This document shows, piece after piece, positions 1,880 to 19,397 of a DNA stretch of 19,397 bases (the stretch's first letter is position 1; every line of letters begins with the position of its first letter). This stretch comes from a bacterium (GTDB lineage: Bacteria > Hydrothermota > Tepidihabitantia > Tepidihabitantales > Tepidihabitantaceae), in the NCBI GenBank assembly GCA_046485285.1, contig JAWOHE010000026.1:1-19397 (forward strand), read 5' to 3'. Made by a program: the position numbers and the translations under genes. The notes under the pieces were generated by a model. The model saw nothing but the letters and a program-made list of their open reading frames with translations, ran no database searches and was not told the origin of the DNA.

Positions 1880-1952
1880 GGCCCCATCGTCTAGCGGTTC
1901 AGGACATCACTCTTTCAAGGTGAAGACACGGGTTCGACTCCCGTTGGGGCCG
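1880..1952 (+). tRNA. tRNA-Glu(TTC)
   Basis: Acceptor GGCCCCA/TGGGGCC; anticodon TTC at 1914-1916; T-loop TTCGACT; CCA not encoded. Confidence 0.95.
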
Positions 1953-1958
1953 GACTTT

Positions 1959-2031
<73 letters not shown>

Positions 2032-2043
2032 CTCGAGGACAGG

Positions 2044-2077
2044 CGAAGGGCCGACCGTCACGCGGTCGCGCCCTTCG
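2044..2077 (+). other. Inter-tRNA GC-rich hairpin
   Basis: CGAAGGGC-CGACCG / CGGTCG-C-GCCCTTCG; no U-tract, so more likely a processing spacer than a terminator. Confidence 0.5.
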
Positions 2078-2090
2078 ACCGTCCGCGCGC

Positions 2091-2162
2091 GGCGGCATAG
2101 CCAAGCAGTAAGGCGGCGGTCTGCAAAACCGCTATACCCGGGTGCAAATCCCGGTGCCGCCT
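2091..2162 (+). tRNA. tRNA-Cys(GCA) with atypical D- and T-loops
   Basis: Acceptor GGCGGCA/TGCCGCC, discriminator U; anticodon arm GCGGT-CTGCAAA-ACCGC; T-loop TGCAAAT. Confidence 0.92.
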
Positions 2163-2218
2163 CTCCGACCGGCGCCGGCTCCCTTGTCATCGGCCGGCTT
2201 TCTGTTAACCTGATTCGC

Positions 2219-2304
2219 GCCGGGGTGGCGGAATTGGCAGACGCAGGGGACTTAAAATCCCCTGGCCCCTCCGGGCCGTGCCGGTTCAACCCCGGCCCCC
2301 GGCA
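2219..2304 (+). tRNA. tRNA-Leu(TAA)
   Basis: Acceptor GCCGGGG/CCCCGGC, discriminator A; GGGGA-CTTAAAA-TCCCC; long variable arm. Confidence 0.95.
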
Positions 2305-2352
2305 TCGTCGCGCGACCGGCCGCGGGTCGGTCGCTGTCGAACCGGGTCCTGC

Positions 2353-2425
2353 GGGCCGTTAGCTCAGCTGGCAGAGCACCTGATTTTTAATCCGGTGGCC
2401 GCAGGTTCGAATCCTGCACGGCCCA
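2353..2425 (+). tRNA. tRNA-Lys(TTT), with one anticodon-stem mismatch
   Basis: Acceptor GGGCCGT/ACGGCCC; CCTGA-TTTTTAA-TCCGG; T-arm GCAGG-TTCGAAT-CCTGC. Confidence 0.88.
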
Positions 2426-2923: not shown

Positions 2924-3036
2924 GACTTCATCCAGCTCGCGCTGACGCGGACCTGCTCTCGCAGTCACAAGGCCCCGGTTCTCCCGCACCGACCGACGGC
3001 CGCAGGACCCCCCCCGGTCATCTCGAACTACACCCC

Positions 3037-3098
3037 GCAGGCCCGCCTGCACGCGACGCGCGGGCAGGCCCGCCTGCGCGACGCGCGGGAAGGCCCGC
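3037..3098. repeat. Two degenerate tandem copies of the CCCGCCTGC...GGGCAGG hairpin element
   Basis: GCAGGCCCGCCTGC(AC)GCGACGCGCGGG(C/A)AGGCCC, twice. Confidence 0.75.
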
Positions 3099-3289
3099 AG
3101 GTAATCGGCAATCAGCCCCAGCGCCGGGCACCCCACCCGGCCGCGCTCAAGCCGGCTGAGGTGCGGGTAGAAGCCAGGCTCGCGACCCATCTGCTGCGCC
3201 AGCTCGACCAGACTCAGCCCGGCCCGAAGCCGCAACCCGCGTAACGCCGCACCCGGCGCAACCGTCTCGCCCGGGCAGAAACCAGCCAC
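3092..3289 (-). pseudogene. Truncated XRE/Cro-C1 family helix-turn-helix regulator
   Basis: GAALRGLRLRAGLSLVELAQQMG...HLSRLERGRVGCPALGLIADYLRA is a typical XRE HTH; recognisable sequence stops at the repeat insertion, and the rest of the 300-aa ORF is antisense read-through. Confidence 0.7.
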
Positions 3290-3883: not shown

Positions 3884-5050
3884 CTAGAAATTCGAGTGCG
3901 CGAAGAACTCGCGGGTGAGCGCCGCGAGCATCTCGCCGCGGCGGTCGTAGAGCCGGCGGAGCTTGCGACGCTTGTGCCGGGCGAGCGCGTAGTGGGTGAG
4001 CACCGGCAGGGCGATGGTCGAGTCGGCGTAGCAGACGACCGCGTCGGGCAGGCGGTCCGGGTCGACCTTGCCCCAGCTCACCGCCTCGCTCGGCGTCGCG
4101 CCGGAGAGGCCGCCGGTGTCGGGCCGGGCGTCGGTGACTTGGAAGAAGTAGTCCTGGCCGAGTTCCTTGATCATCAGCACTTCCTGGATCTGGGGCTCGG
4201 TCTGGAGCATGAAGTTCTTGGGGCTGCCGCCGCCGACGAGGACGACCGCGTGCTTCCCACCCGAGCGCTTGGCGGCGAGGACGTAGCTGGTCGTCTCGTT
4301 GACGTCGATTGACGGGTTGATGCGGAGCTTGAGGCCCTTGAGCTCGAGGCCGGCGATGTTCATCCCGATCGTCGAGTCGCCGGGCGATGAGGTGTGGACC
4401 GGCACGCCGGCGCGCCAGGCCGCGGCGAGGACCGAGACGTCGCGGTTGCCGCTCTTCTTCTCCCACTCGGCGGCATAGCGGCCGAGCAGCCAGTAGAACT
4501 CGGCGGTGCCCATCTCCCTCTGGAACTCGGGCCGGACGAGGATCGAGCGGAGAATCTTGTCGGTTTCCATCAGGCAGTCGGTGTAGCCGAGCAGGACGTC
4601 GTAGATCCGGACGACGTCGTTCTTCCGGAGGTCGGTGTCGTCGAGCAGCGGCGAGCCGACGTGGAGCGGCAGGTTGAAGGCGAAGTGGAGGTCGTGGTAC
4701 ATGTTCGCGCCGGTGGCGACGAGCCAGTCGACGAAGCCGGCCTTGATGAGCGGGACGACGCAGGAACAGCCGAGCCCGGCCGGCGTCAGCGCGCCGGCGA
4801 GGCTCATCCCGACCGTGACGTCGGGCTCGAGCATCTTCCCGGCGAAGAGCCGGCAGCCCTCGCGCAGGCGGGCGGCGTTGTAGGCGAGGAAGGTCTCGTC
4901 AACGAGCGCGGCGAGGCTCTCGCGGCCGGTGATTGCCCGCGGCCGGATGCGCCGGCCGGACAGGTAGGCGGACTTGCGCGGGCAGTTGCGCCGGCGGAGC
5001 CATTCCGGGACCTCGGAGAGGTCCTTGCGGGCGCGGCGGGTCTTCTTCAC
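3884..5050 (-). CDS. speY: Deoxyhypusine-synthase-like protein (SpeY-type, homospermidine biosynthesis)
   Basis: [39 protein letters not shown], and [16 protein letters not shown] retaining the catalytic Lys; GTG start with RBS GGAGG. Confidence 0.85.
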
Positions 5051-5059
5051 GCTGCCTCC

Positions 5060-6235
5060 TCAGGGGATGAGCACCGCCTTCGCGGGCGGGATGCCGTTGA
5101 AGCGGGTCGCGTGGGCGATCGAGTACGCGCCGATGTTGCGGGCATAGACGAGGTCGCCGATGCCGAGCTCGGGCATCTCCTCGGAGTTGGAGATGATGTC
5201 GAGCGAGTCGCAGGTCGGGCCGGCGAGGGTGGTCAGGAACGGCGGACCCTTGCGCAGGGTCTCGAACTGGTAGCGGGCGTGGTCAAAGATGATTCCGGAG
5301 AGGCAGCCGTAGACGCCGTCGTCGAGGTAGTACCAGTGTTTGTTGTTGCGGATCGACCGGCCGATGACCGAGGTGACGAGGATGGCCGACGGCCCGGCGA
5401 TGGCGCGACCGGGCTCGGCGATGATCCGGACCGGGGGCGGGAAGAGCCGGTCGAGCTCCATGTTCAGGACCGGCGCCATCGTCGCGAGCCAGTCTTCGTC
5501 GGTGTCGAAGTGGCGAATCGGGAAGCCGCCGCCGATGTCGACCATCGAGAGATCGAGGCCCTTCTGGGCGGCGTCGACGAGGATGAGCTTGGCTAGCTCG
5601 AAGGCCTCGAGGTAGTTGTCGCCGTGGGTGCACTGCGAGCCGACGTGGAAGCTGACGCCGACCGGGTTGAGCCCCATCCGCCGCGCCCGGACCAGCAGCG
5701 GCACGGCGTCGCCCGGGTCGGTGCCGAACTTGAGCGACAGCTCGACGACCGAGCCGACGTTGGGGACCTTGATGCGGACGAGGACGCTCGCGCCGGGCGC
5801 CCAGCGGGCGATTTTCTGGAGCTCGTACTCGGAGTCGAAGGTCGTCGTTGTCACGCCGGCCTTGCGGGCGCGGCGGATGGCGTCCGGCTTCTTCATCGTG
5901 TTGGCGTAGAGCAGGCGCTCGGGGTTCGCGCCGGCCTCGAGCAGCCACTCGATCTCCGGCATCGAGGCGACGTCGAAGCCGAGCCCGGCGCCGACCAGCA
6001 GCTTGAGGATGTGCGGGTTCGGGTTGGCCTTGACCGCGTACCACGGCTCGACGCGGGGCAGGAGCGCGCGGAAGCGCGCGACCTGGTCGAGCAGGATGGT
6101 CTTCGATATCACGAACAGCGGGGTGCCGTGCTTCCTCGTCAGCGCGGGCAGTGAGCCGACGAGCTGCTGCCGGTAGGCCTTGGTCGCGCGCGGGGCCGGC
6201 GGCCGCACGCGGATGTGGGCGGCGATGTTCTTCAT
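5060..6235 (-). CDS. PLP-dependent ornithine (or lysine/ornithine) decarboxylase, alanine-racemase fold
   Basis: YAVKANP (PLP Lys), GFDVAS, KFG, SFHVGSQC, DIGGGF, EPGR, DDGVYG, GPTCDSLD, GAYS; ATG 6235 preferred over TTG 6250. Confidence 0.92.
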   Translation of the reverse strand: MKNIAAHIRVRPPAPRATKAYRQQLVGSLPALTRKHGTPLFVISKTILLDQVARFRALLPRVEPWYAVKANPNPHILKLLVGAGLGFDVASMPEIEWLLEAGANPERLLYANTMKKPDAIRRARKAGVTTTTFDSEYELQKIARWAPGASVLVRIKVPNVGSVVELSLKFGTDPGDAVPLLVRARRMGLNPVGVSFHVGSQCTHGDNYLEAFELAKLILVDAAQKGLDLSMVDIGGGFPIRHFDTDEDWLATMAPVLNMELDRLFPPPVRIIAEPGRAIAGPSAILVTSVIGRSIRNNKHWYYLDDGVYGCLSGIIFDHARYQFETLRKGPPFLTTLAGPTCDSLDIISNSEEMPELGIGDLVYARNIGAYSIAHATRFNGIPPAKAVLIP

Positions 6236-6244
6236 TTCAGCGCC

Positions 6245-6348
6245 ATTCAAACAGAAGCGGGCGGGAAGTCAAGCGGAATCGGGCCGGTCGGAGCGGGAGG
6301 AGGCCCGGCTTCCCCCGCGCTTGACCGCCGGCAGGACCGGCCTACACT
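6245..6348. promoter_or_regulatory. Divergent promoters: minus strand TTGACT-16-TTGAAT (6272-6245, weak -10); plus strand TTGACC-16-TACACT (6321-6348)
   Basis: Hexamer matches upstream of the two divergent genes. Confidence 0.55.
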
Positions 6349-8435: not shown

Positions 8436-8483
8436 TCAGGCCCACCTGCCTGGGCGCGGGCAGGCTTCGAGGCGGGCGCGGTC
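8436..8483 (+). repeat. 48-bp direct repeat, copy 1 (contains a 24-bp hairpin element); partner at 10117-10164
   Basis: 44/48 identical by manual alignment. Confidence 0.85.
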
Positions 8484-10090: not shown

Positions 10091-10146
10091 GGTCAGGCCC
10101 GCCTGCCTGGGCGCGGTCAGGCCCGCCTGCCTGGGCGCGGTCAGGC
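10091..10146. repeat. Two tandem 24-bp hairpin elements abutting the stop codon of the AIR-synthase-family gene
   Basis: (GGTCAGGCCCGCCTGCCTGGGCGC)x2 followed by GGTCAGGC. Confidence 0.9.
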
Positions 10147-11205
10147 TTCGAGCCGGGCGTGGTCCTTGAGCGCGGAGTAGAACGCCTGCCAGAACGGGTC
10201 GACGACCGGGTGGACGAGCGGTTTCTCGACCCCGGCCTCGACGAGGACCATCCCCTTCTTCGTGACCGCGCCGACATCCCGGGCCGGGATGCGCTTGCGC
10301 CTGAGCGCGGCGAGGACCGCCGCGGCCTTCGCGGGACGGCAGGTGGCGATGAGCGTGCCCTCGCTGATGGACTTGTAGGGGTCGATGCCGAAAAGGGCGC
10401 AGATTTCCGGGACGCAGGCGAGGACCGGGATGCGCTCCTTCTCGACCCTGACCCCGAAGCCGCCGGCCTGGGCCAGCTCGTAGAGCCCGCCCCAGACCCC
10501 GCACTCGGTCGCGTCGTGCAGCGAGGTTATGCCCTTCGCCCGGACGCCGACGCTGACCGCGGCGAGCGCGTCCTCGACGACCGACATCCGGTAGAAGAGC
10601 TTCTCGGCCCGCTTCGCGAAGGCCGGGCCGAAGCGCCGGGCGAGGGTCTTCGGGAACATCGTCGCGAAGATGCCGGCGGCTTCGACCGCCGGGCCCTTGG
10701 TGACGATGATGCGGTCGCCGGGCCGGGCGAAGCGCGGGGAGACGTATTCGCCGAGACTGCCCTCGGCGATGGCGGTCGCGCCGCCGACCATCGGCCAGTT
10801 GCAGTTGTCGTAGCGGGCGGTGTGGCCGGTGACGATGTTGACCCCGTAGCGGCGGCACTCGCGGTGGATGACCTTCCAGACCGTCTCGAGCTGGGCCTCG
10901 TTGATGCTCATCGGCAGGTTGAGGTCGATGGCGAGCCAGGCCGGTTTGAGGCCGCTGGTGACGACGTCGGAAAGCAGGATGTGGATGGCGAACCAGGCCG
11001 CGCGCTCCCAGCCGTACTCGGGGACGATGAAGACCGGGTCGGTCGTCAGGGCGAGGGCGCGGTTGCCGACCCGGATGATGCCGACGTCGACGCCGTGCAT
11101 CGGGCCGACGAGGACGTTGCGGCTCTTCGCGCCGAGCCGCGGGTAGATGAGCTCCTCGAAGACGCGCTGGGATATCTTGCCGATGTCGGGCAGTTTCTCT
11201 TTCAT
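10141..11205 (-). CDS. AIR synthase-related (PurM/HypE/ThiL superfamily) ATP-binding protein
   Basis: 354 aa from MKEKLPDIGKI; GPMHGVDVG, TTDPV, SDVVTSG, VTGHT, RPGDRIIVTKG, LHDATECGVWGGLYE, ISEGTL; RBS GGAGGT; ATGA overlap with thiN. Confidence 0.88.
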   Translation of the reverse strand: MKEKLPDIGKISQRVFEELIYPRLGAKSRNVLVGPMHGVDVGIIRVGNRALALTTDPVFIVPEYGWERAAWFAIHILLSDVVTSGLKPAWLAIDLNLPMSINEAQLETVWKVIHRECRRYGVNIVTGHTARYDNCNWPMVGGATAIAEGSLGEYVSPRFARPGDRIIVTKGPAVEAAGIFATMFPKTLARRFGPAFAKRAEKLFYRMSVVEDALAAVSVGVRAKGITSLHDATECGVWGGLYELAQAGGFGVRVEKERIPVLACVPEICALFGIDPYKSISEGTLIATCRPAKAAAVLAALRRKRIPARDVGAVTKKGMVLVEAGVEKPLVHPVVDPFWQAFYSALKDHARLEA

Positions 11206-11873
11206 CGTGAACCTCCGGGGTCGGGAACGGGCTGGGACCCGCCTGCCTCGGCGCGGGCAGGCCCGCCTGCCTCGGCGCGGGCAGGCCAGCGGGTGAGGTA
11301 CGCGTCGCCGGCCTCGGCGGACCAGGCGCGGGCGAGCGCGCAGGCCTCGTCGACGACGGTGACCGGGTCCGGGCCGACGAGGAAGCTGAGCGGCTCCTTG
11401 CCGACCGCGGCGGTCTCGCGGAGCAGTTTCGGGACCCGGCCGCCGCAGGCGCGGACGGCCTCCTCGACCTTCCACGGCGTCGAGGGCCGGTCCTCGCGTT
11501 CGAGGTCGCCGGGCTCGCGGGCGCGGTCGATGACCGCGAAGACCCAGCCCCGCGCCTCGGCGTAGGCGGCGAGCCAGCGGTCGAGGCGCGGGTTCGAGGC
11601 GAAGTTGACGCCGGCGCGGACCATCGGGTCGCGCCGGCCGAGCTCGACGACGAGCCGGGCCATGTGGTCGGACGCGCCGGGGGCGGGCGGTCCGGCGGGA
11701 CAGGGCCGGCCGGCGACGACGGTGATGCGGCCCTCGACCGCGATGACGTCGGCGGGTCCGCGCGCGCCGGGGAGCGCCCAGGCGAGGTTCGAGCGCACCT
11801 CGGGAATCAGCCGGGCGAACTCCGGGCAGGCCCGGAGCCGCTCGAGCGCGAGGTTGAACCCAGCGTCCAGCAT
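11202..11873 (-). CDS. thiN: Stand-alone ThiN-family thiamine-phosphate synthase domain protein
   Basis: LIPEVRSNLA, AVEGRI, GASDHMAR, RAGVN, DRAREP, TPW, GKEP motifs; the C-terminus carries the repeat-derived PARAEAGG twice. Confidence 0.82.
   Translation of the reverse strand: MLDAGFNLALERLRACPEFARLIPEVRSNLAWALPGARGPADVIAVEGRITVVAGRPCPAGPPAPGASDHMARLVVELGRRDPMVRAGVNFASNPRLDRWLAAYAEARGWVFAVIDRAREPGDLEREDRPSTPWKVEEAVRACGGRVPKLLRETAAVGKEPLSFLVGPDPVTVVDEACALARAWSAEAGDAYLTRWPARAEAGGPARAEAGGSQPVPDPGGSR
11238..11287. repeat. Two tandem 24-bp hairpin elements, in frame in the thiN 3' end
   Basis: (CCCGCCTGCCTCGGCGCGGGCAGG)x2. Confidence 0.9.
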
Positions 11874-11882
11874 ACCGGTTGA

Positions 11883-11910
11883 ATTGTAGGTGCGACAGGG
11901 GTCGGGTCAA
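11883..11910 (-). promoter_or_regulatory. Promoter TTGACC-16-TACAAT, 9 nt before the thiN ATG
   Basis: Near-consensus hexamers; no Shine-Dalgarno. Confidence 0.7.
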
Positions 11911-11948
11911 CCGTGGACCGGGCGGGTGACCATTTCGGCAGGCAGTGT

Positions 11949-11995
11949 CAGGCGGGAGGCTTCGGTCTCCCGCCTGCCTGGGCGCGGGCAGGCCC
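11949..11995. repeat. Hairpin with a C(TTCG)G loop (11949-11976) overlapping a 24-bp element (11969-11995), between divergent promoters
   Basis: CAGGCGGGAGGC-TTCG-GTCTCCCGCCTG. Confidence 0.7.
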
Positions 11996-12001
11996 GCCGG
12001 C

Positions 12002-12029
12002 TTGACGGCGGGCCGGCGCGCGGTAGTAT
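12002..12029 (+). promoter_or_regulatory. Promoter TTGACG-16-TAGTAT for the FTR/methyltransferase cluster
   Basis: Hexamers at 12002-12007 and 12024-12029. Confidence 0.65.
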
Positions 12030-12036
12030 GGACTCG

Positions 12037-12075
12037 ATGAACCGCGTGCTGACAGCCCTGAGGCGGCGGACTTGA
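12037..12075 (+). CDS. Possible leaderless leader peptide, MNRVLTALRRRT
   Basis: ATG 7 nt after the -10; the stop codon lies in the loop of hairpin GAGGCGGC/GCCGCCTC. Confidence 0.35.
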   Translation: MNRVLTALRRRT

Positions 12076-12140
12076 GCCGCCTCCCACCGGGCGGTCGCCC
12101 GGTCCTGACCCACCCGACCGATTCCCTTCCGACCATCCCG

Positions 12141-12166
12141 CCCGCCTGCCTGGGCGCGGGCAGGCC
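12141..12166. repeat. 24-bp hairpin element in the 5' leader
   Basis: CCCGCCTGCCTGGGCGCGGGCAGGCC. Confidence 0.9.
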
Positions 12167-12296
12167 GCGGGGGCACTGGTGAGCCGTCGCGCACGGGGCG
12201 GTCGCCCCACCAGACCAACGCTGACAACCGCGCCGTCGGGCGCCAATCCGGTCTTCTGGTCGCCGCGCCCCGAGCATTGCTCATCCCCGGAGGAAC

Positions 12297-12626
12297 ATGG
12301 AACTGACTGACAAGGACCGCGCGAACCTGGAACGTGCGCGCCGGGTCGGGCAGAAGCTCGGCTACGTGCTGAACCCGGACACCGAACGCGCGCTCAAGGT
12401 AGCCAACCTGCTCGCCCGCAACTCCGCGGAAGCAGGCAGGTACTACTGCCCGTGCAAGCAGTCGCACCCGCTCGACCCGGCGAATGACGTGCTCTGTCCC
12501 TGCCCGATCCTCAAGGAGGAAATCGCGGCGGACGGGCACTGCTTCTGCCGGCTGTTCTATACTACCGAGGCCGCGGCCTCGGCACGGACCGAGAAGGCCG
12601 AACCAGCAACATCAAAGGAGGCATGA
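12297..12626 (+). CDS. Ferredoxin-thioredoxin reductase catalytic-subunit-like [4Fe-4S] protein
   Basis: LNPD; YYCPCK, LCPCP and HCFCRLF (CPC-CPC-CxC); RBS GGAGG. Confidence 0.9.
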   Translation: MELTDKDRANLERARRVGQKLGYVLNPDTERALKVANLLARNSAEAGRYYCPCKQSHPLDPANDVLCPCPILKEEIAADGHCFCRLFYTTEAAASARTEKAEPATSKEA

Positions 12627-13423
12627 TGCCGCAGAGATACGACTACACCGGCAAGGACGTCCAGGACGTGTACGACGGCCCGGGCGGGCTCCTGTGGGAA
12701 GCGGTGATGTCCGAGCAGATTCACTCGGGCAAGGACGAAGTCACCGACCGGATGGCCGCCGCGGTCGGGCTCAAGCCCGGGATGCACGTGCTCGACGTCT
12801 GCTCGGCGCTCGGCGCGCCCGCACGCCAGCTCGCGAAGAACTACGGGGCCCGGGTCACCGGGCTCGACTTCACGAAGACGATGCTCGAGAAGGCGGTCCA
12901 GCGCACGAAGGAGGCCAAGCTCGACAGCCTCGTTGACTTCGTTAACGCCAACGCGATGGACATGCCGTTCAAGAAGGACACCTTCGACGTCGTCTGGGGC
13001 CAGGAGGCCTGGTGCTACGTCACCAACAAAGACCAGCTGATGTCCGAGGCGGCCCGGGTGCTCAAGCCCGGCGGCAAGCTCATCTTTACCGACTGGGTCA
13101 TCACCGGCAGGGTGGAAGAAGAACTGCTGGCGAAGCTCTACGAGTCGATGGCGTTCCCGTACATGGAAACGCTCGCGGGCTGGGCCGGGCTGATGAAGAA
13201 GCACGGGCTCAAGGTCATCGAGGTCAAGGACCAGGCCGACGAGTACGCGAAATGCTTCGACGAGTACAAGAAGATGGTCGAGGTCGACCTGAAGCCGGCC
13301 ATCGTAAAGAACTTCGGGGAGGAGCTGTTCGGGTTCGCGACCGGGCTGGTCAACCTCTGGCGCGACGCGGCCCACGCCCACAAAGTCGGCCGGGGCTGGT
13401 ACATCGGTGAAAAGCAGGCTTGA
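12626..13423 (+). CDS. Class I SAM-dependent methyltransferase (similar to sarcosine/dimethylglycine or phosphoethanolamine N-methyltransferases)
   Basis: LKPGMHVLDVCSALG, VTGLD, DMPFKKDTFDVVW, RVLKPGGKLIFTD; RBS AAGGAGG; TGATG overlap with the upstream gene. Confidence 0.9.
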   Translation: MPQRYDYTGKDVQDVYDGPGGLLWEAVMSEQIHSGKDEVTDRMAAAVGLKPGMHVLDVCSALGAPARQLAKNYGARVTGLDFTKTMLEKAVQRTKEAKLDSLVDFVNANAMDMPFKKDTFDVVWGQEAWCYVTNKDQLMSEAARVLKPGGKLIFTDWVITGRVEEELLAKLYESMAFPYMETLAGWAGLMKKHGLKVIEVKDQADEYAKCFDEYKKMVEVDLKPAIVKNFGEELFGFATGLVNLWRDAAHAHKVGRGWYIGEKQA

Positions 13424-13461
13424 GGCGGTCGGGCGTCGGACTGGAAATCCGGCGCCCGGCG

Positions 13462-13470
13462 TGCTACCAT
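13462..13470 (+). promoter_or_regulatory. Extended -10 TGCTACCAT, 7 nt before GTG 13478
   Basis: TGnTAnnnT match; weak -35 TGGAAA at 17-bp spacing. Confidence 0.5.
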
Positions 13471-13477
13471 TGCCGCT

Positions 13478-14131
13478 GTGACTGACCGGATGCCGGAGAC
13501 GCCCGAGAGCCTTCTCGCCGCGCTCGCCGAGGCGGTCGTCGCGCTCAAGCCCGACCGGGTGAACGCGCTCGCCCGCCGCGCGCTCGAACTCAAGGTCCCG
13601 CCCCGGCAGGCGATTACCGACGGGCTGGCACGGGGGATGAAGCTCGTCGGGGAGAAGTTCTCGGCCCACGAGTACTTCGTGCCCGAGGTCCTGCTCGCCT
13701 CGAAGGCGATGTACGCCGGGTTCGACATCCTCCGGGCCGAGCTATCCGGCCCGGCCGAGAGCCGGGGCCGTGTCGCGCTCGGGGTCGTGCGCGGCGACAT
13801 CCACGATATCGGCAAGAACATCGTCAAGGTGATGGTCGAGGCGGCCGGGTTCGAGGTCGTTGACCTCGGCCGAAATGTCGCCGACGAGGCGTTCGTCCGC
13901 GCGGCAGAAAGCGGCTGCCGGGTCGTTGGGATGTCGTCGCTGATGACGACGACGATGCCCCGGATGGGCCGCATCATCGCCGCCCTCGACAAGGCCGGGC
14001 TCCGGCCCGGGGTCCGGGCTATCGTCGGCGGCGCACCGGTGACCGACGGCTTCGCCCGCGACATCGGCGCCGACGGGTTTGCTGGTAACGCGCACGCCGC
14101 GGTCGAGCTCATCGGGCGGCTGGCGGGCTGA
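13478..14131 (+). CDS. Corrinoid (B12-binding) methyl-carrier protein, MtaC/MttC-like
   Basis: Cap domain GM..VG..F...EYFVPE; DIHDIGKNIV (DxHxxG); GMSSLMTTT; IVGGAP. Confidence 0.95.
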   Translation: MTDRMPETPESLLAALAEAVVALKPDRVNALARRALELKVPPRQAITDGLARGMKLVGEKFSAHEYFVPEVLLASKAMYAGFDILRAELSGPAESRGRVALGVVRGDIHDIGKNIVKVMVEAAGFEVVDLGRNVADEAFVRAAESGCRVVGMSSLMTTTMPRMGRIIAALDKAGLRPGVRAIVGGAPVTDGFARDIGADGFAGNAHAAVELIGRLAG

Positions 14132-14134
14132 TTG

Positions 14135-15127
14135 ATGGCGACCGCTCCCGCGGAGCGGCTGGCCGGCCTGCTTGCCGGCCGGGTGCCGAGCGAGCCGCTG
14201 GTCTTCCCGTTGGTCGTCGCGGACCACGCGGCCCGGATCGCCGGGGTCGAGGTCGGCCGGGCGGCCCGGGACCCGAGCGTGCTCACCCGAGTCCTCGCCG
14301 CGGCCCGGGAGCGCTACCGCTACGATTGCGTGCTCGTGTTCGCGGACACGGTCGTCGAGGCCGAGGCGATGGGCGCGGCCGTCGAGCTGCCCGAGGATGA
14401 CAACGCTTTCTTCGTCGCGGCACCGGATACGGTGCGGACCGCGGACCCGGAGCGCGACGGCCGGATGCCGGTCGTCCTCGAAGCAGTGCGTCGGCTCCGG
14501 GATGAGCTGGACGAGTCGGTGCCGGTTCTCGGCTCGCTCAAGGGCCCGTTCTCGCTCGCGTCGTTCCTGGCCGGCATCGAGGACCTGCTCGGCGCGGTCA
14601 TCGCCAGCCCGGCCCGGGCCGTCCGCTTCCTTGACCTCGCACTCGACAACCAGGCCCGGTTCGCGGCCGCGATCTGCCGGGCTGGCGGCGTCCCGTTCAT
14701 CGGCGACCCGGTCGCATCGGGTTCGCTCATCGGGCCGGGGGTGTTCCGCCGGTTCGCCGCGCCCTACCTGTGCCGGCTGATTGAGGCGGTGCACGCGCTC
14801 GGCTCTCCCTGCGGCCTGCACGTCTGCGGCCGCACCCTTGACCTGCTGCCCGACATTGTCGCGACCGGTGCCGACATCCTGAGCATCGAGGAACCGGACC
14901 TCGCCGCGGCCCGGGCCAAGGTCGGGCCGGGCGTCGTGCTGATGGGCAGCGTGCCGACCGAGCTGGTGCGGAGCGGGACTGCGGCCGCGGTCCGGAACGA
15001 GGCCGCGCGGTGCCTTGCCGTGGCTGGCCCGCGGCTCATCTTGTCCACGGCCTGCGACGTGCCGGCCGACTCACCGATGGAGAATGTCGCCGCCATCGTC
15101 GCCGCAGCACGGGAGGCGAAGCCGTGA
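14135..15127 (+). CDS. MtaA/CmuA-type (UroD superfamily) methylcobamide methyltransferase
   Basis: VEAEAMGA, GRMPVVLEA, GPFSLA, DPVASGSLI; Zn-ligand motifs LHVCG and STACD. Confidence 0.88.
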   Translation: MATAPAERLAGLLAGRVPSEPLVFPLVVADHAARIAGVEVGRAARDPSVLTRVLAAARERYRYDCVLVFADTVVEAEAMGAAVELPEDDNAFFVAAPDTVRTADPERDGRMPVVLEAVRRLRDELDESVPVLGSLKGPFSLASFLAGIEDLLGAVIASPARAVRFLDLALDNQARFAAAICRAGGVPFIGDPVASGSLIGPGVFRRFAAPYLCRLIEAVHALGSPCGLHVCGRTLDLLPDIVATGADILSIEEPDLAAARAKVGPGVVLMGSVPTELVRSGTAAAVRNEAARCLAVAGPRLILSTACDVPADSPMENVAAIVAAAREAKP

Positions 15128-16524
15128 GCCGCGCGGTGACGCTACGGCCGGCGCGGGGCCGGAGTCTGCTGGCGCTGTTGGCGGACGTCGGTATCGAGGT
15201 GGCTTCGGACTGCGGCGGCAACGGGACCTGCGGGAAGTGCCTGGTCCGGGTCCAGGAGGAGGCCGGGCCGCGCTGGGTGCTGGCCTGCCGTTTCGTCCCC
15301 GGCGCGCCGGTGCGGGTTGAATTCCCGGCCGTTCGCGCGCGGGGGGCGGGTGCCGCCGGCCGCCCGCGGCCGGCGCGGGGCCGGCTGACTCTGGCGCTTG
15401 ACCTCGGCACGACCGCGCTGTCCCTGGCCGCGGTTGAGGCCGACAGCGGTCGGGTCGTCCGCCGCCGGGAGATGCTCAACCCCCAGGTCGCGTTCGGCGC
15501 CGACGTGATGACCAGGATTGCCCGGGCCCGGGAAGTCCGATGCCTGGACCTGCTCGGCCCGGTCCGGGAGTTCGCCGCGGAAGCAGGCATCAGTCCCCGG
15601 CGCCGGGTCGTGGCGGTCGGCAACACGACGATGATGCACTTCCTGCTCGGAGCGAACCCGGCCGGGCTCGGCCGCTGGCCGTACCGCTCGCGCCTGCCGC
15701 TGGGCCGGGAGATACGCGGTCGGACGGTCGGCGAGCCGGCGCTGCCGGTGCTGGTGTTGCCGCTGCTTGGCGGGTTCGTCGGGGCGGACTGCACCGCCGC
15801 GATTGCGGCCGCGGGGATGCACCGTCGGCGCGGGCTCGGCCTGCTGGTCGACGCCGGCACCAATGGCGAGATCGTGCTGGGCGACCGGGACGGCATCCTC
15901 GTCTGTTCGACCGCGGCCGGACCGGCCTTCGAGGGCGCGGCGCTCGAGTGCGGAGGCCTCGCCCGGCCCGGTGCGGTCCGCGACGTCGCGCCAGCCGGCA
16001 ACGGCTTCTCGGTCCGGACCGTCGGCAACCGGCCGGCCCGGGCGATCTGCGGCTCGGGCGTGCTGGCCGCGGTCGCGGCTGCGCTCGCCAGCCAACGGCT
16101 CAGGCGGGACGGCCGCATCGCCCGGGGTCGCCGGCTCTTGCTGGCGGACGAGGTCTGGCTGTCCCAGGCCGACCTGCGCGCGGTCCAGCTCGCCAAGTCC
16201 GCCGTCGCCACCGGCATCCGGATCCTGCTGGCCGAGCGCGGCGCCCGGGTCACCGACATCAAGCGGGTGTTCCTTGCCGGCAGGTTCGGCTCGGCGATCA
16301 ACCCGGAGCACGCGGTCGCCATCGGCCTGCTGCCGGCCGGTCCGCCGGTGACGCGCGGCGGCAACCTCGCCCTGCGCGGCGCGGTCCGGGCCGCGGTCGA
16401 GCCCGCGTTCCGGCGCGAGCTGGCCGGGGTCGTGCGACTCTGCCGGGAGGTCGAGCTCAGCAGTCACCCGGACTTCGAGGACCGGTTTCTCAATGATTTC
16501 ACCCTCGCGCGATGGGAATCCTGA
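15124..16524 (+). CDS. ATP-dependent reductive activator of corrinoid proteins (RACo/DUF4445, ASKHA fold, N-terminal 2Fe-2S)
   Basis: CGGNGTCGKC...LAC; DLGTT; NPQVAFGADVMTRI; VGNTTM; GGFVGAD; DAGTNGEI; STAAGPAFEG; ICGSG; QLAKSA; GTGA overlap and RBS GGGAGG. Confidence 0.92.
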   Translation: MSRAVTLRPARGRSLLALLADVGIEVASDCGGNGTCGKCLVRVQEEAGPRWVLACRFVPGAPVRVEFPAVRARGAGAAGRPRPARGRLTLALDLGTTALSLAAVEADSGRVVRRREMLNPQVAFGADVMTRIARAREVRCLDLLGPVREFAAEAGISPRRRVVAVGNTTMMHFLLGANPAGLGRWPYRSRLPLGREIRGRTVGEPALPVLVLPLLGGFVGADCTAAIAAAGMHRRRGLGLLVDAGTNGEIVLGDRDGILVCSTAAGPAFEGAALECGGLARPGAVRDVAPAGNGFSVRTVGNRPARAICGSGVLAAVAAALASQRLRRDGRIARGRRLLLADEVWLSQADLRAVQLAKSAVATGIRILLAERGARVTDIKRVFLAGRFGSAINPEHAVAIGLLPAGPPVTRGGNLALRGAVRAAVEPAFRRELAGVVRLCREVELSSHPDFEDRFLNDFTLARWES

Positions 16525-17663
16525 GTCACGCCGCGTTCCTCGCCCGGCTCGAGGCCCGGGCGCATGAGCTTGCCGCGCTGCGCTCCCGGGGCCGGCGGGT
16601 TGTCGCCTGCGTGTCGGGCCACGCGCCGCACGAACTGGTCCGGGCGGCCGGCGCGATACCGGTCCGGCTGCTGGCCGGCGGGCAGCCGGCGGAGACCCGC
16701 GGCGAGCGCTGGCTTCGGTCCGACGCCTGCGCGGTCTGTCTGAGCACGGTCGCGAACCTCGACCCGGCCGGGCCGGCCGACACGTTCCACGCGCAGGTTG
16801 ACGCCTTCCTGTCGGTGAACGCCTGCGACCTGTTGCGTCGCATGCCCGAGTCGCTCAACCGTTACCTCCAGCTACCGGTATTCGAGCTCTACCTGCCGCG
16901 CGGGTCCGAGGCCCTGCCCAGCCGGCTGGCAGCCTTCCGGCGGGAGCTGGCCCGGGTCGCGGCTGAAGTAGCCGCTTTCGCGGGCACGGCCTTCGACCCG
17001 GAACGGCTGGGCCGGGAAATTGCGGCCGCGAACCAGGTCCGCCGCCGGTTGCGCGAGTTCGATGCGGGCCGCCGGGCTGACCGGCCCGAGGTCAGCCTCT
17101 CCGACATACTCAACCTCGTTGCGCTCGCCGGCGTGCTCGAGCCGGAGGCGATGTTCAAACTGCTCTCCGCAACCGGCGAGCGTCCTGAGCCGCGTACCGG
17201 AAGCCGCCCCCGTCCCCGGCTGATGCTCTGCGGCAGCGAAATCGCCTGGCAGGACCGCTGGCTGGTCGAGTTGCTGGAGGAGCGGGCTGACATCGTGACC
17301 GACCTGCTCGACACCGCCAGCCTCTGGTTCGCAGAGGACTGCGTGCCTAGGCGTTTCGAGGCGGACTGCCCGGAGCAGGGCGACCCGCTCGACGCGCTGG
17401 CCCGGCATTACTACTCGTTCCCGACCGCGGTCTGGCGACGGCCCAGCGATGCGGTTTTCGCGCTAGCCCGGCAGCGCGCGGCCGAGGCCAGGGTGGACGG
17501 GGTCGTGCTCAAGACGTTGCTCTACTGCGACCCGTGGAGCTTCGAGTCTGCCCGGCTCAAGGCCGCGCTCGAACGGCCCTTCCTGCACATTGACGGGACC
17601 TACTCGTCCGAGAACCGGGAGCAGCTTCGCACCCGGGTCGAGGCGTTCCTGGAGGAGCTGTGA
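16512..17663 (+). CDS. 2-hydroxyacyl-CoA dehydratase / benzoyl-CoA reductase (HgdB/FldB-C) family Fe-S subunit
   Basis: PHELVRAAGAIPVRL, DACAVC, NACDLLRR, VDGVV....YCDPW, EQLRTRVEAFLE. Confidence 0.88.
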   Translation: MGILSHAAFLARLEARAHELAALRSRGRRVVACVSGHAPHELVRAAGAIPVRLLAGGQPAETRGERWLRSDACAVCLSTVANLDPAGPADTFHAQVDAFLSVNACDLLRRMPESLNRYLQLPVFELYLPRGSEALPSRLAAFRRELARVAAEVAAFAGTAFDPERLGREIAAANQVRRRLREFDAGRRADRPEVSLSDILNLVALAGVLEPEAMFKLLSATGERPEPRTGSRPRPRLMLCGSEIAWQDRWLVELLEERADIVTDLLDTASLWFAEDCVPRRFEADCPEQGDPLDALARHYYSFPTAVWRRPSDAVFALARQRAAEARVDGVVLKTLLYCDPWSFESARLKAALERPFLHIDGTYSSENREQLRTRVEAFLEEL

Positions 17664-19168
17664 CCGGCCTGCCCGCGCCCAGGCAGGCGGGCCTGTCTGC
17701 GTGCGGACCCGCACCCGCAGGCTGGCAGGACCCGCCCGCGGCCCGGGTCGATTTCGATGAATGGGCCGGGCTGTTCGAGGCCGTGCCTGGCGAGCTGGTC
17801 GAGCGCTACCGCTACTACCGCCGCGACCAACTGGCGTCCGGCGGGCTCCGGCCGTGGTCGACCTACCTGTTCCCGCCCCAGTCCTTCGCGGTCTACGGCG
17901 CGCGCCACCTCGCCCGGCTCAGGTTCGACAATTCGCTGGCCGCGCTCCGGCTCTGGGGTTTCGTCCAGTCGGAGAGCGAGCGGCTGTTCCGCGCCCGCCA
18001 GCTCGGCCGCAGAGTGGTCGCGACGATGGGCGACCTCGGCGCGCTGCCGGTGCTGGTCAATTCGTTCCCGGAGCTGGTCGCGTTCTACCCGGACTGCACC
18101 TGGTGGACGCCGTTCGCGATGGAGAGCACGGTCCTGCTCGACGCCGCGGCCCGCGAGGGCATCGGCGAGGCGACCTGCTTTTCCCGCGCCGCGCTCGGCG
18201 CGTTCGCCAAGCACGCCTACTTCCCGGACCCGGACCTGGTCATCGCCTCATCAGGCGCGTCCTGCGACGACTTTGCCGGGGTCGAGCAGCTTGCCGCCGG
18301 CCATGCCCGTTCGGTGCTCTGGCTCGAGGAGCCGCTGCGCCGGGACTGCGGCGCGAGCTGTACGCAGGGGACTGCGCGCCCAGGCGTTTCGAGAACGGCC
18401 GGCGGCGTGCCTTACGAGCCCGCGGCCCGGGAGCTGTTGGTCCGCGAGTACGAGCGCGCGCTCGGCCGTCTCGAGGAGCGCGCCGGCCGGCGCATCGGCG
18501 AGGATGAGCTCCGCGCCGGCATCCGCCGGGCCAATACGGTCCGGGCGCTGGCCCGCCGGGTCCGGGAACTCGCCTACGCGGACGCGGCCCTGCCCGCGCT
18601 GGAGACGATGCTCGTCGAGTTCGGCTGCCTGCACGGCTACTCGGACTTCGAGGAGTGGCAGGACATACTCGAACAGCTCGTCGCGACCGGCGCGGCCCGG
18701 CGCGACCGGGGTGAGCGGGTACGGCCGCCGGACGCTCTGCGCGTCGGCTGGGTGTCGCCGCCCGCCGACCCGCTGTTCCTCGTCCACGTCGAAGACCGGG
18801 GCGCCCGGGTCGTCGCCAGCGAGTACGTCATCAACCAGGCGCTCGAGCCGATCGACGAGACGAAGCCGCCGCTCGAGGCGGTCGCCGAGTCGTTCCTCGC
18901 CGCCTCGCTCATCGGCAGTTCGCGCGCCCGGGCCGCGACGGTCATCGCCGAGGCGCGCCGGAACCGGGCCGAGGGATTTATCATCTCCGGGATTCTCGGC
19001 GGCTCGCACTGCGCGATGGAGACCCGGCTCATCGCCGATTCGGTCCGGGAGGAACTCGGCCTGCCGGTGCTGGACTTCGACGTGCCGCCCCCGGCCCGCG
19101 AGATCAACCGCCAGCTCGCGACGCGGATAGACGCCTTCCTCGAGGTCGTCCGGGAGCGCCGGGGATGA
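17660..19168 (+). CDS. Second, N-terminally extended HgdB/dehydratase-family Fe-S subunit
   Basis: FYPDC, EATCFSRA, GASCDD, EGFIISG...SHCAME, LGLPVLDFD, QLATRIDAFLE; GTGA overlap and RBS GGAGGAG. Confidence 0.82.
   Translation: MTGLPAPRQAGLSACGPAPAGWQDPPAARVDFDEWAGLFEAVPGELVERYRYYRRDQLASGGLRPWSTYLFPPQSFAVYGARHLARLRFDNSLAALRLWGFVQSESERLFRARQLGRRVVATMGDLGALPVLVNSFPELVAFYPDCTWWTPFAMESTVLLDAAAREGIGEATCFSRAALGAFAKHAYFPDPDLVIASSGASCDDFAGVEQLAAGHARSVLWLEEPLRRDCGASCTQGTARPGVSRTAGGVPYEPAARELLVREYERALGRLEERAGRRIGEDELRAGIRRANTVRALARRVRELAYADAALPALETMLVEFGCLHGYSDFEEWQDILEQLVATGAARRDRGERVRPPDALRVGWVSPPADPLFLVHVEDRGARVVASEYVINQALEPIDETKPPLEAVAESFLAASLIGSSRARAATVIAEARRNRAEGFIISGILGGSHCAMETRLIADSVREELGLPVLDFDVPPPAREINRQLATRIDAFLEVVRERRG
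17666..17695. repeat. 24-bp hairpin element in frame near the gene 5' end (GLPAPRQA)
   Basis: GGCCTG-CCCGCGCCCAGGCAGGCG-GGCCTG. Confidence 0.9.
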
Positions 19169-19397
19169 GTGCGGGCCTGCCCGCGCCCAGGCAGGCGGGC
19201 CTGCTCACGCCCCGCGAGCGGTTCGGCCTGCTGGTCATCGACGAGCCGCAGGACCGGGTGCCGGTCTACCCGCTGGTCACGGTCCACGCCTGCCGGGTCG
19301 CGGGCATCACGGTCCGCGAGTACGTCACCGACGGCGTCGCGCTCGCCCGGGCCCAGCTCGCGGCCCAGGAGCGCTACGGCCACGACTTCATCTCGGT
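19165..19397 (+). CDS. Second MtaA/UroD-family methyltransferase (5' portion; runs off the window; absent from the ORF track)
   Basis: Manual translation MSAGLPAPRQAGLLTPRERF...DRVPVYPLVTVHACRVAGITVREYVTDGVALARAQLAAQERYGHDFIS; ATGA overlap. Confidence 0.85.
   Translation, partial: MSAGLPAPRQAGLLTPRERFGLLVIDEPQDRVPVYPLVTVHACRVAGITVREYVTDGVALARAQLAAQERYGHDFIS
19171..19204. repeat. 24-bp hairpin element in frame near the gene 5' end
   Basis: GCGGGCCTGC-CCGCGCCCAGGCAG-GCGGGCCTGC. Confidence 0.9.

Follow-up and report, generated by a model that had tools for sequence, protein, structure and literature searches.

A candidate selenium-acquisition operon of a Hydrothermota bacterium combines a corrinoid methyl-transfer set, a predicted BzdNO-like reductase and a SAM methyltransferase

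Previous reports have described two kinds of corrinoid methyl-transfer systems that were connected with methylated selenium compounds. The first are gene clusters named type 1 mlp, of which Kountz & Balskus (preprint, PMC10418091) found 367, mostly in Firmicutes (73% of the genera); many of them carry the genes for the double-cubane protein DCCP and its reductase, selABD and Sao genes, and a function in methyl-selenide salvage was proposed. In the same work, the protein ClMlp2 was found to move a methyl group between cobalamin and selenide (Km 80 µM), and a non-selenium mlp clade was tied to homologs of the ATP-driven, C-S-cleaving MarHDK. The second is SdmABC of Methanococcus voltae and M. 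maripaludis, for which demethylation of methyl-selenides was proposed (Niess & Klein 2004, as cited in PMC10418091 and PMC11097638); the accessible part of the latter paper reports that SdmABC-like genes of M. maripaludis are up 5.6-7.8 log2-fold upon selenium depletion. In this work, we analyzed a nine-gene operon of an uncultured Hydrothermota bacterium of candidate division WOR-3 (assembly GCA_046485285.1, contig JAWOHE010000026.1), eight genes of which lie in a stretch of 19,397 nt, hereafter the window, that is the entire contig (C65) of a 2.34-Mb genome (G000) with a completeness of 88%. The gene content, order, conservation, cofactor motifs and selenium gene context described below are observations, and on balance they lead us to regard the operon, with moderate confidence, as a selenium-acquisition or salvage system that would free or handle selenium from methylated compounds.

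The genes were identified by Pfam and NCBIfam profile matches to the open reading frames (ORFs) of the window (E-values, or bits where stated, in parentheses):

12297..12626, plus strand: FtrB-like small iron-sulfur (Fe-S) protein (Pfam FeThRed_B, 1.2e-16)
12623..13423, plus strand: class I S-adenosylmethionine (SAM) methyltransferase, PMT/SDMT-like, hereafter SAM-MT (Methyltransf_11, 9.6e-24)
13478..14131, plus strand: corrinoid (B12-binding) methyl carrier protein, CorP (B12-binding, 8e-25; B12-binding_2, 8e-20)
14132..15127, plus strand: MtaA/Mlp-type corrinoid methyltransferase A of the UroD superfamily, MtaA1 (URO-D, 1.3e-60)
15124..16524, plus strand: RACo/Ram-type ATP-dependent corrinoid reductive activase with 2Fe-2S, middle and ASKHA domains (Fer2, Raco_middle, RACo_C_ter 2.9e-57)
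16512..17663, plus strand: HgdA-like, BzdN-like subunit of 383 aa (HGD-D, 2e-61)
17660..19168, plus strand: HgdB-like, BzdO-like subunit of 502 aa (HGD-D, 6e-33)
19165..19397, plus strand: MtaA/Mlp-type methyltransferase B, MtaA2, N-terminal 77 residues, interrupted by the contig end (URO-D N-terminus)
L009 7530 down to 6472 (contig C100), minus strand: rest of MtaA2 (complete URO-D gene)
L009 5707-6468 (contig C100), minus strand: HgdC/BadF-type activase, an ATPase (BcrAD_BadFG, 1.9e-52; TIGR00241, 233 bits, cut-off 125)

The eight genes of the window, all on the plus strand from 12297 to the contig end, had been described as co-oriented and mostly overlapping or abutting in an initial annotation made from the sequence alone, and both its coordinates and its domain assignments were confirmed by the profiles. 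Four junctions have 4-nt overlaps (12623/12626, 15124/15127, 17660/17663 and 19165/19168); the remaining ones are a 13-nt overlap (16512/16524), an abutting pair (14131/14132) and a 54-nt gap (13423/13478). CorP scored 177.5 bits against TIGR02370, under the cut-off of 215. Contig C100 shares the last 191 nt of the window at 100% identity and supplies the rest of MtaA2 and the ATPase, and the operon therefore consists of nine genes and ends with the HgdC/BadF-type ATPase, a gene which the initial annotation had proposed to look for downstream. The MtaA2 homologs have approximately 350 aa, consistent with the ATG at 19165, and a related locus (L010), whose counterpart of the 502-aa protein is 93% identical, continues past MtaA2 as C100 does. 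Beyond the ATPase, C100 carries the unrelated genes of a papain-like peptidase, ThiD2, RecA and RecX. As the relatives of HgdB align only from about residue 17-21 of the 502-aa protein, its true start may lie downstream of the annotated one.

The operon agrees with the published definition of type 1 mlp clusters in three of its four operational criteria, and has the zinc motif in addition. It encodes two URO-D proteins, a B12-binding protein and RACo; its genes share a single transcription direction with no divergent gene between them; and no tetrahydrofolate methylase homolog was found within 20 kb among the scanned ORFs of the window and C100. The 2-kb spacing rule is exceeded: HgdA and HgdB are inserted between the two transferases, so that 2.64 kb separate the end of RACo (16524) from the start of MtaA2 (19165). 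Moreover, no match to Pterin_bind was found anywhere in the 88% complete genome, and a folate acceptor is therefore unlikely. No MttB/MtaB gene was seen among the larger window ORFs scanned against Pfam, in agreement with the initial annotation; this absence is not a gap, since in such systems the methyl group is both taken from the donor and passed to the acceptor by enzymes of the UroD type.

Both MtaA-like proteins have MtaA (4AY7) as their best solved relative (1.1e-25 for MtaA1), and the zinc motif H-x-C...C is invariant in 19/19 of their sequences (H214, C216 and C295 in MtaA2 numbering). These three residues align with the LHICG and GCG stretches of 4AY7, in which we take the aligned residues to be the zinc ligands. 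A His-Cys-Cys set is the mark of sulfur and selenium transferases, as opposed to O-demethylases, which have carboxylate-containing sets (PMC10418091). This bears on the possibility that the operon encodes an O-demethylase for methoxylated aromatics, coupled to an enzyme of the benzoyl-CoA (coenzyme A) reductase or 2-hydroxyacyl-CoA dehydratase type with a CoA thioester as its substrate. Bacterial O-demethylases, too, are composed of UroD-type transferases together with a corrinoid protein and an activase, and HgdA/HgdB has the architecture of BzdNO, but the invariant His-Cys-Cys ligands and the features of the reductase given below make this proposal highly improbable.

Compared with type 1 mlp clusters, the likeness thus lies in the absence of a folate methylase, in the frequent company of DCCP with its ATPase and of selABD, and in the methyl-selenide demethylation proposed for them. 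The differences are the 2.64-kb HgdA/HgdB insert between the transferase genes, a reductase that is probably a BzdNO-like heterodimer scoring under the double-cubane family cut-off, a tightly coupled SAM-MT, and the hosts, WOR-3 and Planctomycetota (the main text of PMC10418091 has 0 mentions of "WOR-3"). SdmABC likewise comprises a corrinoid protein and UroD-type methyltransferases, and genetics and induction upon selenium depletion tie it to dimethylselenide as a selenium source, according to the accessible parts of the two papers citing it; unlike the operon, it is archaeal, coenzyme M is its presumed acceptor, and those parts report no HgdAB-like reductase, ATPase, SAM-MT or FtrB. The corrinoid part of the operon thus matches cluster kinds already known, although these are still largely untested. 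The initial annotation knew of no characterized pathway with this combination; in view of the match to SdmABC and to type 1 mlp clusters, described bioinformatically with two MtaA-like proteins, a corrinoid protein, an activase, a reductase of the double-cubane family and the ATPase of that reductase, and tied to methyl-selenides (PMC10418091), the combination is therefore not wholly undescribed.

The reductase pair is one of the parts in which the operon departs from those clusters. Among solved structures, HgdA scored best against DCCP (6ENO, 76 bits, 2e-20), above MbdN (59 bits), HadC (50 bits) and BzdN (47 bits), whereas against the double-cubane family NF040772 both HgdA (146.7 bits) and HgdB (61.1 bits) remained under the cut-off of 350. 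In the accessible part of Fuchs et al. 2025 (PMC11971306, PDB 8S02), BzdN carries an [8Fe-9S] cluster on six Cys and BzdO a [4Fe-4S] cluster with an open site on three Cys. The positions of conserved Cys in HgdA (35/73/105/267/306/339) parallel those of BzdN (36/73/100/263/293/327), and those in HgdB (173/202/451) parallel those of BzdO (95/128/380). Within the HgdA family (61 sequences), Cys73, 105 and 339 are present in all or nearly all members, and Cys at 35, 267 and 306 in 45, 49 and 53, respectively. The HgdA of the window has Ser35, Asp267 and Ala306 and keeps Cys73, 76, 105 and 339, so that the seven-Cys motif with its six cluster ligands is incomplete. The same loss of Cys35/267/306 together with the presence of Cys76 was observed in L010, L017, L044 and two corrinoid-form loci of Planctomycetota, which suggests a four-Cys lineage whose N-like subunit would carry a single four-Cys cubane. 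HgdB retains Cys173 and Cys202 in 57/57 sequences and Cys451 in 56/57, and Cys202-Asp203-Asp204 is invariant where BzdO has Cys128 and His131.

The initial annotation had suggested a complex prediction for this pair. The HgdA/HgdB heterodimer model reached 0.90 in all three runs, against 0.00 for the best control, a mark attained by 58/80 solved complexes and 2/110 mismatched pairs; the contacts agreed in at least 91%, the partner pLDDT (predicted local distance difference test) was at least 87, and conserved Cys lay at the interface. The score may reflect likeness to solved complexes (3O3M, 8S02 and 9G87) and is not proof of binding. Taken together, the motifs argue for a BzdNO-like heterodimer and not a canonical double-cubane protein. 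With BzdNO and BzdPQ, as far as these are described in the accessible text, the operon shares the two-HGD-D heterodimer, the matching Cys spacing and an ATPase of the BadF/HgdC type. It differs from them in the low sequence similarity (BzdN, 47 bits), in the four Cys of its N-like subunit, in an N-terminal extension of approximately 75 residues in HgdB, in the Cys-Asp-Asp that replaces the Cys...His of BzdO, in having a single ATPase gene and not two, and in the lack of CoA-related genes near it. Thus, of the components of a class I benzoyl-CoA reductase or 2-hydroxyacyl-CoA dehydratase pathway, the two HGD-D subunits and the BadF/HgdC-type ATPase are present, but no CoA ligase or CoA transferase was found in the window, C100 or the scanned conserved neighbor families. 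This, together with the better score of HgdA against DCCP than against BzdN and the Cys-Asp-Asp of HgdB, speaks further against a coupled O-demethylase.

DCCP is a homodimer, unlike the HgdA/HgdB pair of the window. With the DCCP family (6ENO, 7YYL, NF040772), as it is described in the accessible sources, the pair has in common that DCCP is the best solved relative of HgdA, the activation by an HgdC-type ATPase and the association with SelD; the accessible part of the Haft & Gwadz 2022 preprint gives 955/970 cases of double-cubane proteins co-occurring with SelD. In related loci, a canonical DCCP stands beside the same SAM-MT (L053, 465.8 bits; L051, 417 bits), and none was found in the assembled 88% of G000. 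A selenocysteine in the HgdB-like protein, suggested by a TGA flagged in many matches, was ruled out, because in the loci inspected this codon either terminates the gene normally (query position 499) or comes from reading through sequence that precedes the start.

We then compared the loci of other genomes, one genome per species, found with the 502-aa HgdB-like protein as query. Of these 43 loci, 42 are labelled WOR-3, Stahlbacteria, Planctomycetia metagenome-assembled genome (MAG) or unclassified bacteria, and one (L051) comes from a Planctomycetaceae MAG. CorP, MtaA1, HgdA, HgdB, MtaA2 and the ATPase follow each other in the order of the window in 33/43 loci; of the other ten, six are truncated where the contig stops, one or two genes are missing from each of L022, L024 and L036, and L051 lacks the corrinoid genes. 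The arrangement is thus not due to chance. RACo is present in 30/43 loci and missing from seven otherwise complete ones, and SAM-MT is present in 23/43, immediately upstream of CorP in 14. At 9755-11309 of L051, the HgdB-like gene appears as two ORFs (260 and 265 aa), and the genome search reports one TAG within the match.

All ORFs of the 43 loci were clustered into families and the representatives scanned by profile. The recurrent neighbors include SelD (303.7 bits, cut-off 125), YedF (179 bits, cut-off 110), SelA (1.6e-144) and SelB, as well as an SsuA/NMT1-like ATP-binding cassette (ABC) transporter and three families of secreted Omp28-like or type IX secretion system (T9SS) proteins. At least one of SelD, YedF, SelA and SelB lies within 10 kb in 22/43 loci, in two arrangements, either with SelD immediately 5' of CorP or with SelA-SelB immediately 3' of the ATPase. 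The first layout reads SAM-MT, DCCP with ATPase or the ABC transporter, FtrB, secreted proteins, YedF, SelD and the core, and the second SelD, FtrB, SAM-MT, core, SelA and SelB. Even where SAM-MT is on a separate contig from the core (L053, L054, L066 and L067), it still starts a string ending in YedF-SelD. In the secreted Omp28-like or T9SS-tailed proteins between SAM-MT and YedF-SelD, in-frame TGA codons stand at positions where relatives have Cys (L033, L037 and L041 for families f15/f20; L029, L044 and L057 for f21), and these proteins are likely selenoproteins, judging from their reading frames. In several WOR-3 genomes, a second SelD gene, often without TGA, lies a few kb from the cluster; many genomes of the family of the window have two SelD genes, one with TGA elsewhere and one without it that shares the contig of the cluster, at a distance of a few kb (G206, G207, G208, G209, G210 and G220 carry two).

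The profiles of whole genomes point in the same direction. Of 272 WOR-3 genomes, 86 have the HgdB-like protein, 119 have SelD and 80 have a member of the SAM-MT family at E <= 1e-50. SelD accompanies HgdB in 81/86 genomes, as compared with 38/186 genomes without HgdB, and the five HgdB-bearing genomes lacking SelD are 67, 76, 81, 84 and 94% complete. All 80 carriers of SAM-MT have HgdB and none of the 186 HgdB-free WOR-3 genomes has SAM-MT; in six genera of mixed presence, both genes are kept or missing in the same genomes. The initial annotation had named the separate occurrence of the SAM-MT, FTR and HgdB genes from the corrinoid genes as an argument against its interpretation: SAM-MT and HgdB do accompany the corrinoid genes in other genomes, whereas the FTR-like gene is optional, being within reach in 10/43 HgdB loci and in 0/21 loci of Planctomycetota.

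This context bears on whether the operon might instead handle methyl-sulfur, that is, dimethylsulfide, methanethiol or the methylthio-alkanes of methionine salvage, with the reductase playing the part of MarHDK as in the non-selenium mlp clade (PMC10418091). The His-Cys-Cys zinc site suits sulfur as well as selenium, a clade with C-S-cleaving MarHDK homologs does exist, and no sel gene lies on the operon's contig in G000. The resemblance to MarHDK is one of logic, both being ATP-driven low-potential reductases for carbon-chalcogen cleavage beside a corrinoid sulfur or selenium methyl-transfer set; MarHDK is nitrogenase-like, with a fold unrelated to that of HGD-D proteins, and no homolog of it was found among the neighbor families scanned in the 43 loci. 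Neither was a sulfur-assimilation or methionine-salvage gene among the scanned conserved neighbor families, and the enrichment of SelD in cluster-bearing WOR-3 genomes, the presence of SelD, YedF, SelA or SelB within 10 kb in 22/43 loci and the second SelD beside the cluster in several genomes speak against a sulfur system, which we consider unlikely. Of the methylated sulfur, selenium or nitrogen metabolites that the initial annotation had listed as candidate substrates, the genomic context favors methylated selenium and not the others; nothing points to the assembly of a thiol cofactor or to a dehydration, which it had also mentioned.

A second phylum was found to carry part of the operon. 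The HgdB-like protein occurs in 21/401 sampled Planctomycetota genomes (34-47% identity), together with HgdA and the ATPase in 21/21 loci and with a canonical double-cubane gene in 14/21. SAM-MT is present in 18/21; of the three misses, two are at contig ends and one has no match. SelA, SelB or SelD is within reach in 7/21. Two of these loci (L161 and L163) repeat the order of the window, SAM-MT-CorP-MtaA-RACo-HgdA-HgdB-MtaA-ATPase, whereas 18/21 have HgdA, HgdB and the ATPase without corrinoid genes, SAM-MT being found in 16 of those 18. From the content of these loci, therefore, SAM-MT, HgdA, HgdB and the ATPase are the constant part, to which the corrinoid set or, alternatively, a canonical DCCP is added. 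Beyond these phyla, a search of sampled genomes of a third one (G673, Desulfonatronospira) gave a match at E <= 1e-30 in 0/371 genomes, a word-based homolog search meant to reach the mlp proteins of Clostridium or Methanococcus gave only WOR-3-like proteins among the best 120 matches, and a search with SAM-MT alone gave close WOR-3 relatives followed by unspecific methyltransferases. Look-alikes in the ESM Atlas, from Thermoplasmatota, Fermentibacterota, Methanobacteriota and Chlorobiota, are leads only.

SAM-MT is closest to small-molecule N-methyltransferases of the phosphoethanolamine/sarcosine type, its best solved relative being phosphoethanolamine N-methyltransferase (5WP5, 8e-24). An alignment of 25 sequences from both phyla shows W130 and C131 in every sequence and C60 in 24/25. 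The PMT residue aligned with Cys131 is the His of the "ILHI" stretch, presumably the catalytic one. In the closest relative genome (L010/L073, 4493-5281), SAM-MT is only 56% identical to that of the window despite an HgdB identity of 93%, and no FtrB match was found there; conversely, the SAM-MT of the window shares 89% identity with the one in a genome where HgdB shares 66%. Given these discordant identities, lineages seem to have exchanged the 5' end of the operon.

The strict association of SAM-MT with the reductase (80/80 genomes; none of the 186 without HgdB), the corrinoid-free form in 18/21 Planctomycetota loci and the invariant Cys at the presumed catalytic His, which would suit a soft chalcogen substrate, could also be accounted for by a biosynthetic or homeostatic direction. 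The reductase would then make selenide from oxidized or elemental selenium, while SAM-MT and possibly the corrinoid set would methylate the surplus to methylselenol or dimethylselenide for buffering, trafficking or detoxification; alternatively, selenium might be built into the cluster of the reductase, a selenium-bridged cluster having been raised as a formal possibility in the accessible part of the Haft & Gwadz 2022 preprint. However, CorP has no evident methyl donor, given that a folate methylase was not found, the scanned conserved neighbors showed no gene for selenite or selenate reduction or for efflux, and the nearest experimentally studied systems, as far as the accessible sources describe them, act as demethylases under selenium starvation. 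We therefore give this direction little credence.

Among solved structures, FtrB is closest to an FTR-like protein from M. acetivorans that consists of a single chain (4TPU, 1.9e-9). The canonical FtrB pattern is CPC...CPC...CHC, and the protein of the window has it as CPC 51-53, CPC 67-69 and CFC 82-84, with Phe for His, in alignment with 4TPU. It scored 48 bits against the NCBIfam FtrB double-selenoprotein family (cut-off 160), and selenocysteine was ruled out in its relatives, which have all Cys and no TGA in WOR-3, some copies being truncated. The gene is an optional accessory restricted to WOR-3, and a central role in disulfide recycling, as initially assigned to it, is therefore unsupported.

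What the substrate is, which way the methyl group flows and what the reductase, SAM-MT and FtrB contribute can be inferred for a selenium-acquisition or salvage system as follows. CorP, the two zinc-dependent MtaA/Mlp transferases and RACo would together demethylate methyl-selenide or methyl-selenol as a system of the SdmABC and type 1 mlp kind, in which one transferase would pass the methyl group from selenium to Co(I) and the other would pass it on to a thiol-type acceptor and not to tetrahydrofolate, and the freed selenide would go to the selenophosphate synthetase SelD. The BzdNO-like heterodimer, energized by the HgdC-type ATPase, would constitute with SAM-MT a second module, which also exists alone and might prepare the selenium substrate at very low potential, either by reductive C-Se cleavage at the open iron site of HgdB's three-Cys cluster or by making selenide from Se(0) or Se-S species through reduction. 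It is tempting to speculate further that SAM-MT, HgdA, HgdB and the activase are an unrecognized four-gene selenium-mobilizing system common to WOR-3 and Planctomycetota. In this doubtful proposal, SAM-MT, with Cys for the usual catalytic His, would make a selenonium from a seleno-ether, the Fe-S pair would cleave the C-Se bond reductively at the open-site cluster, as radical-SAM enzymes cleave sulfonium, and the corrinoid set or a canonical DCCP would complete the release of selenide for SelD.

Several points weigh against a function in selenium acquisition. First, the published function has thin support: the ClMlp2 assay was run in the reverse direction, with free methylcobalamin and a kcat of 0.78 per min (PMC10418091), and the Methanococcus genetics are taken here as cited by others. 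In addition, in G000 contig C37 carries SelB and SelD and contig C3 carries SelA, none of them being on the operon's contig, and YedF had no match in this 88% complete genome; in this organism, therefore, the link to selenium is one by family and not a physical one. Besides, the co-occurrence in WOR-3 is overstated, as related genomes are not independent, and in Planctomycetota it adds little, since SelD is common there regardless (286/401 overall, 20/21 with HgdB and 266/380 others). The sel genes may also gather because the genes of the secreted selenoproteins share the island, in which case the operon need not handle selenium. Moreover, the HgdA of the window lacks three of the six cluster Cys kept by most relatives, and it is not obvious how salvage would fit with a SAM-dependent methylase next to a demethylase. 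Notwithstanding, the association with selenium genes in two arrangements and in whole-genome profiles, together with the His-Cys-Cys transferases, makes selenium acquisition or salvage the account that we favor.

Upstream of the operon, the window carries a divergent ThiN gene (1.1e-42) and a ThiL-like gene (10141-11873, minus strand), a thiamine operon that is outside the system. The AIR-synthase-like gene (10141-11205, minus strand) was tried as a SelD-like partner and ruled out, as it is ThiL-like and follows ThiN. It lies upstream of the operon in the window and downstream in L010 (14396-15457) and L017, which indicates a local rearrangement. Two further elements have a regulatory appearance:

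12002..12029, plus strand: promoter-like site TTGACG-16-TAGTAT, approximately 270 nt upstream of the first gene (consensus match only)
17667..17688, no strand: 22-nt GC-rich palindrome GCCTGCC-N8-GGCAGGC at the HgdA/HgdB junction

Within 11200-19397, 2 promoter-type sites were found, as compared with 0.2 on average in shuffled sequences. The terminator scans gave nothing exceeding the shuffles. A search for riboswitches and known RNAs upstream with Rfam at gathering thresholds returned only five tRNAs at 1880-2425. The strict palindrome recurs in the window at 19175, 11972, 12144, 11241 and 11265 (22 nt each), 6 of the 12 copies in the 2.34-Mb genome being within the window, as compared with 0-1 in shuffled genomes; looser copies are at 3034-3099, 8437-8465 and 10094-10126. 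Palindromes flank the promoter-like site and are also found at the HgdA/HgdB and HgdB/MtaA2 junctions, where the annotated N-termini contain their translation, GLPAPRQAG; the element may be an operator or a repetitive extragenic palindromic (REP)-like sequence. Elsewhere in the window, the five tRNA genes (1880-2425, plus strand) lie downstream of a PpiD/SurA-like rotamase gene, and at 3884-6250 (minus strand) a deoxyhypusine-synthase-family gene adjoins one of the ornithine/diaminopimelate (DAP)/arginine decarboxylase family, which may be a polyamine pair of the homospermidine type.

Altogether, the initial interpretation is partly supported. In the literature searched we found no description of a heterodimeric reductase or a coupled SAM-MT in an mlp context, and the new elements are the probable BzdNO-like heterodimer, the strict co-occurrence of SAM-MT and HgdB, the corrinoid-free form of Planctomycetota, the loss of three Cys in HgdA and the optional FtrB. 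To our knowledge, no natural substrate is known for double-cubane-type ATP-driven reductases, and we are aware of little on the route by which anaerobes obtain selenide from reduced or methylated selenium. The operon family unites a reductase of apparent BzdNO type, a dedicated SAM-MT and a B12 methyl-transfer set in one transcription unit, and thus offers a defined protein set and few candidate substrates for probing the function of this reductase family. Were the speculative four-gene system to exist, it would provide the first natural non-CoA substrate for the HGD-D/double-cubane family and a new route of organoselenium mineralization. The published mlp/Sdm idea is hereby extended to two further phyla, in which the module of reductase and SAM-MT is constant and the corrinoid set is exchangeable.

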